Origin: a virus
DNA: 28,758 nt
Virus genome (UHGV): UHGV-0099614
Strand: one strand, 5' to 3'
Position numbers: made by a program. Shown here piece by piece: positions 12,001-15,000 of this stretch. How positions within the stretch are numbered: the stretch's first letter is position 1; each line of letters opens with the position of its first letter.

Positions 12001-15000
12001 TAGAATTACCATTCCTTTCTCCTTTTACATTACCTCTCGATTCCAATCCATATGAGTGTGAGATGTTTCCTGATGGAGTAACCCATTCAAGATTTAGATA
12101 GTTATTATTATATTTATCACCATCTATATGATTAACCTGTAACCCTTCAGCAAATCCACCGACAAAGTGAGATGCAACAAGCTTATGTATTAGTATGTTC
12201 TTTTTTACGCCATCCTTATATAAGCACACATACTTATATCCATTTACGTTATGATTATGCTTCAGCCACCTCCCCTTAATAAGACGCCCCCTCAAATTTA
12301 CTCTTGAATGCGAGTAAACTCTACCATCATTAGTGATGGCGTACAGTCCTTCATATCCTTCGATATCTTTTGCGTTTTCACTTAACATATCTACTCCTTG
12401 AGTTTCGATTTATGTTACACGAATAGAAAGGCCTGATAATGTAACAGGACCTTTTGCAATAACTCTGAATTTAAATCCAATGAGACGTCTAACTCGACCA
12501 ACTTTTCGCCATAAAACGCGATTGTCATATACAAATGGTTTTTGTAATACGACCATTTGCTCACGACCGTAATTAATTCCATCTGTAGTGGCTGATATAA
12601 ATATTCTATCTATTCTATCACACACGCCGCCAGATGTTTCTAATTCAAGGTCATTTATTAAAACGTTATCAGCCTTTATTAGAGGGGAATATAAAATATG
12701 CTCTTGTTGTTTTTCGTATTGTGAAGATATATCGAATTGCAATTTCCCGGTCACGGACTCCAGTTTATCGCCGCACGTTATCTGATTGCCTTCGTAAATG
12801 AAGTCGATAGCGCGGTACACATCGTCATAAAGGCCTGTTTTCAACACACACCATTGCGGACCATTGGCGCTTGAAGATGCGTCGTACACCAGAACATGGC
12901 GCGGAAGATGGATAATCAGAAGCTCATGCGCATCAAATCGCAGCGATTCCATCACGCCATCAGCCAGTTCATCAGCAGTGTAGGAGCGGAGTATTTTCTC
13001 AATGCTCGCGCTGGCGATTGGTGATACCTGACCGGAACCGATGATATACACAGACGGCGCACCTGTTGCCGGATTGCTGATGAACGCATACGAATCAGCG
13101 AATGGCGTTTTGCAGTAAGTCCCGGCAATGCCTTTCTGCACCATCAGTGATGGCTGTGCGACATACAAAGCAGCACCAACGGTGGTTGCACCAGTCAGGG
13201 AGAAATATTCAATCGTCGATGAACCAAAACAGACGATGAAATCTCGCCATGTGCCGATACCGATGATGCCGTCCGGCTGCGATTCTGCGCGATATTGTGC
13301 GCTGTATCGGTCAGGGTGCGATTCGTCTTCAAGGTCAGTGATAAACCATGAATCAGTTCCGTCTTTTGACCACGCATAACGCCCACGTAAGCGCGTAATG
13401 TCGCGAACTGAACCTAACTCGTACTGTGTGAATCCGCTGTCTGTAGGCCAGTTTGAGACGGTTTTAACCGTGCCATCATAGCGATACTCGACCAGTTGAC
13501 CATTAACGCCTACCGCCTGTGATGTTCGACCGTGCGCCATTGATACGCGACCACTTCCTGCAACATCACCGACTTCACTTTCGCCCTTATACAACTTGCC
13601 ACCGCAAACGCGATAAACAGCATTCTGCGCCATGTTGTACTCGACGCCCCGCGATACGCCGTTCACATCAGAACGTTTGGCAATGCCCGGGAATGAGCGA
13701 AGATATCCGCTGCTGTTGAGTATTTCTTTGGGTGTAGCCAGCATATTCACTGGAAGATAGTCGATATAGTCGGCGTTTCGGAAGTCTTTGCCGACACCTT
13801 TCATAAGCGGAAGTTGCTGAATCGGCATTATTCGCTCCCGTTATCGCAAGGTTCCTTTCGGTGGAAGTAATTCCAACCGTTCCACTTCGCCAACTGGTTA
13901 CCGCTACCAACAGGCATACGGTTTGGATATACGTTTTACCGAGCATGATGTCTTTTCCGGTGTGTCCGTGACATACAGTCCATACACCAACGATATCTTT
14001 ATATGGTATGTAGCTGACACCTTCCAGACCATCGTTACCACTTGGCCCAGTGATTAACACAGATGCTATAGCAATAGCCCCGCCACTTATCGCCGCTATT
14101 ACGCTATTTCGTAGTGCCGGTGACATTGCCATTCAATCTGTCCTCGCGCTCTTTGCGCTTGTAGTACCAGTTGATGCCAAATGTGCCGACAGTACAAAGA
14201 ATACCAATGATGACAGCCCAGTCATTCAGGGAGAGAATGCCACCCATCGCAGTCAGTCCTCCGAAGCTGTAACTGAACCATTCTCTGATTTTGTCCATAC
14301 GGTACATGCTCTACCCCTTCATTGAGGGGATTTGCTCTATTTAATTAGGAATAAGGTCGATTACTGATAGAACAAATCCAGGCTACTGTGTTTAGTAATC
14401 AGATTTGTTCGTGACCGATATGCACGGGCAAAACGGCATGAGGTTGTTAGCGCAACCTCTTGCCACCCGCTTTCACGAAGCCAGCCATTGCGCTGGTTTT
14501 CTTTTATGCAAAGCACACCGCACCGTAGCCACAGCGGATAGATGGTCATCAGAATCCTCCTTTCTTCTTGGACTGCGGTTCCTCGCGTTCACGGCGGCGC
14601 ATTTCAGCAGACTGTTGGTCTGTATCATAAATAGCGCCATTTGCCTGAATGCAATACACCGTGCCGGTATTGCCATGACGATTGAGACGAAGGATTAGTT
14701 CGGTTTCACCAGGTGGAACACTGTCATCAAAAGCACCTTCACGATGGATCCCCACCCAATAATCGCAATCCTGTTCAATCTGCCCTGTATCGCGCGAGTC
14801 ACTTGGTAATGGGCGTTTATTGGTTCGGCTTTCCAGTGCGCGGTTAAGCTGTGTCAGAAGCACAACAACGCAATCAAGCTCTTTGGCAAGGTTCTTCAGT
14901 CCTTTGGTGATCATGCCGTAAGCAAGGTCGTTGCGATCGGCCTTCTCAGCGGTCATTAGTGTCAGGTAGAGCCTGCTGTCCATAAACTGGCGGTGTATAG

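Follow-up and report, generated by a model that had tools for sequence, protein, structure and literature searches.

The window, by which we mean the whole 28,758-nucleotide stretch analysed here, contains a P22-like (Lederbergvirus-type) prophage, integrated at the tRNA gene argW and now decayed, and positions 13829-14307 hold the remains of its lysis cassette. Over the retained parts it shows 94-99% nucleotide identity to P22-like phages and defective argW prophages (Kapi1, IME10, Sf6, Emek). The gene order is also that of P22-like phages, which runs from intS through the gtrABC-like genes, tailspike, mnt, gene 14, gene 26, gene 10 and gene 4 to the head genes, lysis genes, Q, nin, the replication genes and the immunity region. 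Unlike these phages, the window has at least three internal deletions. They account for the loss of the head, packaging and ejection genes, the nin genes and Q, as well as the early-left operon, and have left few of the lysis genes and only part of the replication module. The terminase, portal, scaffold, coat, Q, replication and ejection genes of a complete, inducible P22-like prophage are thus all absent or truncated, and the element would be unable to replicate, package or lyse. The genes of the lysis region, that is, the holin, the endolysin stub, the gene-4 remnant and gene 10, all lie on the minus strand (Table 1).

Table 1. Features of the lysis region and other features of the prophage discussed in the text (positions in the window)
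Feature	Position	Strand	Remarks
Candidate further junctions J4 to J7	around 10183-10375 and 17333-17990		
NUMOD4-HNH ORF	11855-12388		1.4 kb from the gene-4 site
Gene 10, complete	12410-13828	-	472 aa; Pfam Phage_stabilise
Chimeric ORF	13668-14132	-	154 aa; 68 endolysin residues plus 86 unrelated residues (ORF list and alignment)
3' remnant of P22-type gene 4 (head-tail adaptor)	13828-13929	-	last 33 codons and stop
Inverted-repeat remnant	13915-13929	+	left arm, loop and first right-arm base; rest deleted
Deletion junction J1	13928-13929		single TA common to both parents
5' SAR-endolysin remnant	13930-14132	-	68 codons; SAR segment at about residues 9-29, plus E37, D46 and T52
Holin gene, intact, predicted class II	14104-14307	-	67 aa; possible dual start, M1 and M4
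Retained part of late leader, promoter-distal	14308-14540	-	233 bp upstream of holin; Emek homology
Deletion junction J2	14539-14540		shared TA; window compared with Emek and loci L002 and L003
Truncated DnaB-like helicase ORF	14549-15076	-	175 aa; Pfam DnaB_C positions 137-244 of 255 only
Deletion junction J3	14967-14968		inside helicase ORF; TA shared by both parents
Resolvase-family gene	26755-27381		profile match

The holin ORF matches the Pfam family Phage_holin_2_3 (PF16080; 75.1 bits against a cut-off of 28.8, E=4e-21, profile positions 1-49 of 56), which assigns it to the class II holins of HP1 type, and its product is identical at 67 of 67 residues to the holin of Salmonella phage vB_SemP_Emek. 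As judged from the sequence, the protein has two hydrophobic segments (about residues 11-27 and 30-47) and a charged C-terminal tail (KRKEREDR). The first-pass annotation had described an apparently intact pinholin-like gene. The ORF is indeed undamaged, but its match to the phage 21 holin S family (PF04971) reaches 19.5 bits, below the cut-off of 26, and in this the cassette differs from that of phage 21. A pinholin role, in which small holes depolarise the membrane and the SAR endolysin is released, is suggested by the pairing with an endolysin of the SAR type. As in other cassettes of SAR endolysin and class II holin (phage 21 S21/R21, P1 Lyz, ST104, Emek), the holin ORF overlaps the start of the endolysin, here by 29 nt as in Emek.

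The endolysin stub is identical over residues 1-68 to the 167-residue endolysin of Emek and all similarity is lost from residue 69, in agreement with the earlier proposal that the gene was cut after about 69 codons with its SAR domain and the start of its catalytic region conserved. Like the other SAR endolysins, the stub keeps a membrane-tethering N-terminal segment, Gly/Ala-rich and weakly hydrophobic (assigned by eye, and identical in Emek), together with the E-x8-D-x5-T motif. Unlike them, it has lost about 99 of 167 residues from its C-terminus, and Rz and Rz1 are absent. It spans only positions 3-40 of 125 of the Phage_lysozyme profile (PF00959), which means that the catalytic domain is incomplete; the homologue in the IMG/VR contig L037, the nearest intact relative that shares both the endolysin and the gene-4 allele, spans positions 3-125. 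Downstream of the stub there is no lysozyme domain in any frame, because the sequence there consists of gene 4 and gene 10. The unrelated residues of the chimeric ORF are the gene-4 remnant and the start of gene 10, both read out of frame, and the collection searched has no gene whose product is exactly this one.

The homology had also been said to stop about 100 bp upstream of gene 10, and a blastn alignment with Emek does cover 13914-14540. The supposed fusion of the endolysin to gene 10 has to be given up, as there is no in-frame fusion: the roughly 100 bp in front of gene 10 are the end of gene 4, and gene 10 is complete (PF11134, 940 bits, E=2e-283, profile positions 1-468 of 469). The gene-4 remnant is 95% identical to annotated gp4 remnants and to the intact gp4 of phages IME10 and CurroJimenez. 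Full-length gene 4 (PF11650, P22_Tail-4) is absent from the window; the intact gene of L037 matches this family. A three-way comparison with intact gene 4 and intact endolysin identifies the parents of J1 as the gene-4 site GGA-TA-ACC and the endolysin site TGG-TA-TAC. In L037 these two breakpoints are 9,522 bp apart, and the sequence between them encodes the C-terminal part of the endolysin, Rz, a T5orf172-domain protein, both terminase subunits (small and large), the portal, scaffold and coat proteins, and the first four-fifths of gene 4. Through a 9.5-kb internal deletion, endolysin codon 68 is now followed, across a common TA, by the final 33 codons of gene 4. The comparison with L037 bears out the single large deletion proposed earlier for the loss of the rest of the endolysin, Rz/Rz1 and the head module, except that its distal endpoint lies inside gene 4.

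The prophage has at least three such scars, every one joined at a common TA. At J2 the late leader (GCGGA-TA-AGG) is joined to the 3' flank of the helicase gene (GATG-TA-GATGG), and with this second TA-to-TA deletion the prophage lost Q, the nin genes and the region of the late promoter. At J3 the helicase gene (CAGG-TA-ATCG) is joined to the 5' part of a replication-protein gene (CCTTA-TA-GAG), so that a third deletion cut the replication genes. Upstream of the holin, homology to Emek stops at position 2912 of the Emek locus, beyond which Emek has a terminator (2980-3007), the qut site on which antitermination by Q depends (3024-3053) and the Q gene (3115-3738). In the window the holin lies 241 bp behind the truncated helicase gene, and the minus strand from the helicase remnant to the holin contains no promoter-like or terminator-like match. 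Because the deletion took Q and the nin genes together with qut and the terminator that follows the late promoter, any holin expression must start at the early rightward promoter. The holin would then be transcribed only by read-through from that promoter once the repressor is lost. The idea that the orphan holin could stay active overlooked this second deletion.

One explanation for the retention of the truncated cassette is that it is useful, either because the repressor-controlled holin, lacking an endolysin, would kill the cell or depolarise its membrane once SOS-induced, or because tail and O-antigen cargo is selected. The holin is identical to that of a working phage and, since J2 arose, has been part of the early rightward operon, with nothing resembling a terminator hairpin in between; a repressor with an S24 self-cleavage domain, Cro and CII are intact, and the gtrABC-like genes and the tailspike are retained. 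We nevertheless find this explanation distinctly doubtful. No N-type antiterminator gene was found in the prophage, identity to active phages suits a recent scar rather than long maintenance, and a base-precise endpoint is beyond the reach of selection. The J1 junction of the window is absent from every other genome searched, species-representative genomes included, and therefore neither spread nor conservation is indicated; among complete E. coli genomes, none has the window's combination of deletions. Taken by itself, the scar is ordinary prophage decay.

The gene-4 endpoint of J1 is found in many other prophages. A search of 5,426 complete E. coli genomes finds this gene-4 allele in 248 records; the gene is intact in 219 of them, 29 have the 3' end only, and records with only the 5' part number zero. 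The 5' 397 nt of the gene are present in exactly 219 records, each covered to at least 80%, and since they are limited to those records there is no reciprocal product. Inversion or translocation was rejected on the same ground, the 5' part being missing from the truncated genomes (one place per record). Base-by-base inspection of the endpoint covered 11 of the 29 truncated records. The 3' remnants stop at nt 101-104 in all seven records sampled, in two more records and at loci L002 and L003. At least 11 distinct sequences have become joined to this endpoint, all of them meeting it at exactly one TA. From the lysis and head regions these are an endolysin, a lambda-type S holin, two sites in small terminase genes and a head gene; the rest are abc2, ral, one further sequence and three sites within or next to early-right replication genes. 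The truncated prophages occupy three chromosomal sites (argW, thrW and dacD-sbcB) and have three integrase types, and their gene-4 remnants differ in SNPs that match different intact alleles. The side lost is always that of the head genes and the gene-10 side is always kept. The gene-4 endpoint is a recurrent, one-sided hot spot, with at least 11 independent deletions in other prophages. The Sf6-type gene-4 allele, used as a control, is also found in 248 records, with 11 partial copies, both 5'-only and 3'-only; three that were sampled have three different endpoints. We found no published description of the gene-4 hot spot in the open-access literature. Its recurrence and one-sidedness are beyond what the earlier reading of a single sequence could show.

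It might be argued that there is no hot spot, and that a single ancestral gene-4 deletion was followed by diversification of the left flanks. Some junction types do recur in unrelated samples (L009 and L136; L010 and L132), so that individual scars must have spread vertically or horizontally, and the window shares J3 with L010. However, all 11 types diverge from the first base past the TA, and later homologous exchange therefore could not have swapped the flanks. The different SNP sets, the three attachment sites and the three integrase types also speak against a single ancestor, as does the finding that the intact parent of each partner has its own TA at the crossover. We regard a single origin as extremely improbable.

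The crossover sites themselves have a clear pattern. A TA is present in 11 of 11 partners against a background of 4.3% of positions, which would occur by chance with a probability of about 1e-15, and GG is found within 4 nt upstream of the crossover in 8 of 11 (background 19.5%, P=2e-4). The right flanks of the partners resemble each other weakly (P=0.04) and matches past the TA are near chance. All 11 junctions retain exactly one TA, with bases neither gained nor lost. This is the outcome that might be expected if an enzyme catalysed conservative breakage and rejoining at a 2-bp TA core. The gene-4 site GGATAACC would then be a strong pseudo-site, and weak partners could be found wherever GG(N)TA occurs. 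Candidates would be a serine recombinase, or a TA-specific transposase. In the quasi-sites of Cin and Gin the central dinucleotides must match, the gene-4 site fits the partly palindromic pattern GGNTANCC, and the window contains a resolvase-family gene. The symmetry is limited to GG..TA..CC around the invariant TA core, and the partner sites have little in common except TA and GG. Further, no recombinase or transposase is common to the loci, there is no insertion sequence at any junction, the ETEC4067 locus (L006) has no neighbouring island, and in CT02 the same resolvase accompanies an intact gene 4. A symmetric enzyme would not give 29 records with the 3' part kept against none with the 5' part kept, and we consider enzymatic rejoining of this kind unlikely. 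The lack of insertion sequences at the junctions also led us to reject adjacent deletion mediated by such elements, and a transposon end at the gene-4 site was rejected as well, as the window has no inverted copy of the terminal 19 nt (up to 3 mismatches) and a repeat scan found no matching arm.

In intact gene 4 the hot-spot sequence is CGGTTTGGATAACCG, and the gene reads ...CATACGGTTTGGATA then ACCGG across the breakpoint, which is within the inverted repeat CGGTT-TGGAT-AACCG. The corresponding hairpin, a weak one with a 5-bp stem, is the centroid fold on both strands at about -4.2 kcal/mol; its 80-nt context folds no better than shuffled sequences (z=-0.5 and -0.05). Given the positions of oriC and dif, chromosomal forks reach all three integration sites (argW, thrW and dacD-sbcB) from the deleted side, an agreement that would carry no weight if all P22-like prophages share this orientation. 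Several motifs were considered for the site and rejected. GGATAA does not suffice as a motif: it also occurs in the Sf6-type allele, 44 nt from the 3' end, yet that is not where any of the three sampled copies stops. The minus strand reads TTATCCAAA, a possible DnaA box, and other left sites fit this poorly. Comparison by eye with Chi, Ter, dif, hix/gix and integron core sites gave no convincing match.

We consider it quite probable, taking the account as a whole, that this is a decayed prophage whose scars J1-J3 arose by illegitimate joining and whose gene-4 endpoint is a recurrent, one-sided one. As to what makes the gene-4 site a hot spot, our best guess is that a strand-specific break forms at the small hairpin and is rejoined through microhomology. 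Every scar would reflect illegitimate joining over a microhomology of at least two bases. In gene 4 the starting point would be a strand-specific break or an arrested 3' end after ...CGGTTTGGATA, a position at the loop/stem border of the 5-bp hairpin, on the strand serving as template for the leading strand. On the gene-10 side the end would be anchored or protected while the opposite arm is resected, and the 3' end would pair through its terminal TA, often aided by a nearby GG, with a site further along. The mechanism is read from the scars, and a nick, pause or nuclease at the gene-4 site would be hypothetical.

Two known systems resemble this proposal in part. Bierne, Ehrlich and Michel reportedly described, in 1991 and 1997, deletion hot spots at the terB arrest site in plasmid and phage hybrids. 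Like these, the gene-4 hot spot has one endpoint fixed within a few bases and one that is variable, short-homology joins and one-sidedness according to fork direction. Unlike them, it has no Tus/Ter-like sequence and arrest there is hypothetical, and its events are natural, range from 3.6 to >20 kb and involve as little as 2 bp. Mueller, Smith and Belfort are said to have described, in 1996, asymmetric repair after cleavage by the homing endonuclease I-TevI in T4. There, as would be the case here, a specific cut with one protected product would give one precise end while the other is degraded; unlike I-TevI homing, the gene-4 outcome is deletion by illegitimate joining, and no endonuclease is linked to the site.

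A related explanation is a site-specific double-strand cut by a nuclease of phage origin, which could be a homing endonuclease or else a terminase that recognises a pac-like site. The enzyme, from the prophage or a superinfecting relative, would shield the gene-10 side, and the other end would be degraded and rejoined. A nuclease would fit a pattern that is nucleotide-precise, one-sided and allele-specific, and from gene order the side kept is that which a P22-type terminase would package. Bound I-TevI protects one cut end, and GIY-YIG enzymes leave 2-nt 3' overhangs. Free-standing nuclease genes are abundant in these prophages, among them the NUMOD4-HNH ORF of the window and HNH genes in nin regions, and the intact relative L037 encodes the T5orf172/MUG113-domain protein. 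Two of four loci with the HNH gene have the gene-4 truncation, but the other two have an unaltered gene-4 site, which weakens this gene as the cutter. It is also missing from most truncated prophages, and its insertion point is far off for a homing target. A nuclease gene adjoins the gene-4 site in none of the loci seen, and a pac function in gene 4 is not known. Such a double-strand cut thus seems rather unlikely, if conceivable. Rpn nucleases were also considered as the cutter and rejected, as they are reported to be without sequence specificity (PMC5350276).

Prophages are usually pictured as decaying through random deletions among which selection then chooses. In this case roughly an eighth of the copies of a common gene-4 allele in complete E. 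coli genomes are cut at a single precise base, with the same side always removed and many independent partners. This precise, one-sided and multi-partner pattern indicates a specific molecular cause, which would bear on how lethal prophage functions are lost while tail and O-antigen genes are kept. We tentatively raise the possibility, as a minority view of our own data, that a sequence- and strand-specific DNA-breaking activity acts on the 15-bp hairpin of one class of P22-like gene-4 alleles. Such an activity might belong to a nickase, a nuclease of the homing type or an enzyme resembling terminase, of host or phage origin. If so, it would represent natural, programmed-looking prophage disarmament or phage-phage conflict and not random decay. 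The gene-4 breakpoint also provides annotation pipelines with a simple marker of such remnants.

Some other junctions in related prophages have TT or AA instead of TA, which suggests that the TA may just mirror the fixed gene-4 end. Of 524 rare breakpoints detected when 5 Mb of loci were scanned by k-mers, only 57 end in TA, and we therefore rejected TA as a general rule for breaks. In the same scan GGATA^A was the left site in 3 cases against about 0.13 expected, and GATA was among the most frequent breakpoint ends.

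The minus strand carries every gene of the lysis region. The 67 residues of the holin are all identical to those of the holin of Salmonella phage vB_SemP_Emek, and the first-pass annotation was right to call this gene intact; in a Pfam profile search it scores far over the cut-off for the HP1-type class II holin family, and its N-terminus, MYRM, gives a possible dual start. The 29-nt overlap between the holin and endolysin genes is the same in Emek. The endolysin was said to be cut at about 69 codons, and indeed its residues 1-68 are those of the 167-aa Emek endolysin, with nothing related from residue 69, where the reading frame continues for 86 unrelated codons, ending at 13668. 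The stub keeps the Gly/Ala-rich N-terminal segment and E37, D46 and T52, in the E-x8-D-x5-T spacing of T4-lysozyme-like SAR endolysins, and matches only positions 3-40 of the 125 in the Pfam lysozyme profile. The proposed fusion to gene 10 is not supported, as gene 10 is complete by Pfam and the intervening sequence is the 3' end of a P22-type gene 4. By itself, the lysis stub is ordinary prophage decay.

Features of the prophage remnant and its flanks in the window
Feature	Coordinates	Strand	Remarks
Host flank	848-5405		yfdF/icaT, mlaA, yfdC, argW, intS
intS	4113-5306		retained
gtrABC-like genes	5460-8014		retained
Tailspike gene	8081-9841		retained
Junction	9842-10375		set of junctions between mnt region and gene-7 stub
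mnt	9882-10175		retained
NUMOD4-HNH_3 ORF	11855-12388	-	retained; 177 aa
Gene 10	12410-13828	-	retained; complete
Gene-4 remnant	13828-13929	-	head-tail adaptor; last 33 codons and stop
J1, common TA	13928-13929		endolysin to gene 4
Endolysin stub	start 14132	-	retained
Holin	14104-14307	-	67 aa
J2	14539-14540		late leader to helicase gene 3' flank
J3	14967-14968		helicase to replication-protein gene
Inverted copies	15595-15638, 17269-17310		border immunity region
Junction	17333-17990		set of junctions from early-left operon to neighbouring island
Island	17983-28575		adjoins prophage remnant
Integrase C-terminal fragment	17983-18279		island
G2P-like replication initiator	20343-21395		island
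1094-aa protein	22149-25433	-	island; PIN-TPR-GreABC domain
Resolvase-family serine recombinase	26755-27381		island

The gene-4 remnant is 94-95% identical to incomplete gp4 annotations in two E. coli genomes and also matches the 3' end of the intact gene 4 of phages IME10 and CurroJimenez_Bas106. The endolysin/gene-4 junction (J1) reads GGTTTGGA-TA-TACGTTTT, while the intact parents read GGTTTGGA-TA-ACCGGAC in gene 4 and CTTCGG-TA-TACGTTTT in the endolysin gene, and this comparison places the crossover at the TA common to both. In L037, an intact relative from IMG/VR that shares the window's endolysin and gene-4 alleles, the two TAs are separated by 9,522 bp encoding the endolysin C-terminus, Rz, a T5orf172/MUG113-domain protein, the small and large terminase subunits, portal, scaffold, coat and most of gene 4. 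This gene content bears out the suggestion that a single large deletion removed the rest of the endolysin, Rz and the head module. The J1-specific junction was absent from every other sequence searched. Within the stretch that the window has lost, the T5orf172/MUG113-domain gene (L037 10605-11264, minus strand) is flanked by Rz and the small terminase gene; its domain and the GIY-YIG nucleases are related.

In the two E. coli genomes the gp4 remnants end at the same base as in the window and are joined to different genes, namely codon 9 of a lambda-type S holin and a small ORF downstream of the helicase gene. Searched with the whole gene, 5,426 complete E. coli genomes gave 248 records of the window's gene-4 allele, 219 with the complete gene and 29 with the 3' end only. 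All seven truncated copies sampled stop at nt 101-104, as do two from another search. When only the 5' 397 nt served as query, exactly 219 records came back, all at least 80% covered, and hence no 5'-only gene 4, nor one cut elsewhere in these 397 nt, among the same genomes. About 12% of the copies of this allele are decapitated at this hot spot. With further junctions from pattern scans of IMG/VR and metagenome contigs, the distinct partners joined at the endpoint number 11: the endolysin, the S holin, the small terminase gene at two positions, a head gene 3.6 kb distant, three sites in or beside early-right replication genes, abc2, ral and one without a gene assignment. The gene-4-anchored deletions are independent events. 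Common descent of all the remnants is excluded by their differing partners, by differing SNPs that match different intact alleles, by three different attachment sites (argW, thrW and dacD-sbcB) and by differing integrases. The Sf6-type gene-4 allele, used as a control, also gave 248 records, 11 of them partial. The three partial copies sampled have different endpoints (nt 192-483, 1-195 and 315-483), both 5'-only and 3'-only copies occur, and a GGATAA lying 44 nt before the 3' end is not an endpoint in these three. This indicates that the hot spot is allele-specific and that the hexamer alone is insufficient. Deletion hot spots with a fixed endpoint are already known, such as those of Ter sites and palindromes; the gene-4 hot spot shares the fixed endpoint but differs in being natural, allele-specific and one-sided, and we found no description of it in the open-access literature.

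The intact parental sequence was recovered for all 11 partners, and in every one TA lies precisely at the crossover, with one TA kept in the scar and no bases gained or lost. With 4.3% of positions in comparable phage DNA beginning a TA, the probability of this by chance is about 1e-15. A conservative recombinase acting at a TA core would explain such clean scars, but it leaves the one-sidedness unexplained and no enzyme is common to the loci. Outside the TA, similarity is near chance, and GG occurs within 4 nt before it (as GGTA, GGNTA or GGATA) in 8 of 11 partners versus 19.5% of TA sites generally (P=2e-4). The gene-4 site fits the motif GGNTANCC, and its minus strand, TTATCCAAA, presumably resembles a DnaA box. 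Its TA spans the border of loop and 3' arm of the inverted repeat CGGTT-TGGAT-AACCG, which both strands give as their centroid fold (about -4.2 kcal/mol) and which is exceptional in a 40-nt context only (z=-2.6), not in 80 nt. In a k-mer scan of 5 Mb of fetched loci the site ranks first among breakpoints with several unrelated continuations, setting aside one other that is probably an attachment site, and left sites of the form GGATA^A number 3 against 0.13 expected. TA is not universal, since related prophages also have junctions with TT (left site GGATT^ACC) or AA. The TT microhomology occurs in a portal-to-helicase deletion in the argW prophage of E. coli CT02 (L134, ~25839), whose left site resembles the gene-4 GGATA^ACC. 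A TA in ral (ATGGTTA^AGCCTG), which may be a second recurrent site, is the breakpoint in three different scars (L137 ~3101, L412 ~3455 and L134 ~30149), with gene 4, an unrelated early gene and, via 8 bp of homology, an exonuclease gene as partners.

The scars are microhomology junctions in which one endpoint is fixed, base-precise and one-sided. We propose that a 3' end ...GGATA would be repeatedly generated on the window's plus strand and stay anchored, with variable loss of the other arm, and that it may pair through its terminal TA, with GG helping, to be then extended or ligated. By K-12 coordinates, chromosomal forks presumably arrive from the deleted side at all three attachment sites, which would make the plus strand the leading-strand template. 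A nick in this strand would allow the leading arm to break away and undergo resection, and its loss fits the one-sidedness of the deletions. Fork orientation is a weak test because all such prophages may have this orientation, and a fork from a phage origin would run in the same direction as chromosomal forks. A protected cut end bound by a nuclease, either a homing endonuclease or terminase, fits equally well and would account for both precision and one-sidedness. The HNH gene 1.4 kb from the gene-4 site is present in only four of about 140 loci with the site, two with truncated gene 4 and two with an intact site. This NUMOD4-HNH_3 ORF is free-standing between gene 10 and gene 26 and resembles a homing endonuclease.

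The window runs mlaA, yfdC, argW and then the P22-like prophage, which also retains a gene 7 stub, gene 14, gene 26 with a knob of the Sf6 type, a helicase fragment, cII and cro; its LexA-like repressor is intact. J2 reads CAGCGGA-TA-GATGG, from the parents CAGCGGA-TA-AGGTG and GATG-TA-GATGG, and has cost the prophage the nin genes, Q and the late promoter region. In Emek the terminator, the Q gene and the qut site, which is needed for Q antitermination, all lie past the point corresponding to J2, and the holin has therefore been deprived of its late promoter and activator. The helicase remnant now lies 241 bp upstream of the holin, and nothing resembling a promoter or terminator was found on the holin's strand in between; holin expression, if any, would need the early rightward promoter after repressor loss. 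J3 reads CAGG-TA-GAGCC, again with a common TA. The left sites of J2 and J3 are of the form GG(A)TA^A, as at gene 4, with TA common to the parents in both. The prophage is predicted to be unable to replicate, package or lyse.

Of the remaining junctions, that near 17333 lies within a 19-20-bp repeat, GGCTTTGGGGTGTGGTGAAG. Around the immunity region, one pair of inverted copies matches perfectly over 19 nt (TTCCCGCATTTCGGCGGGA) and a second measures 18 nt; they probably represent hairpin sites of the nutR and nutL type. Downstream of the left copy, no gene for an N-type antiterminator was recognised. Identity to two E. coli genomes is only about 95.5-96% in the host flank, whereas it is 98-99% in the first 786 nt of the window. 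The separate island also occurs in E. coli CT02, beside a prophage with an intact gene 4.
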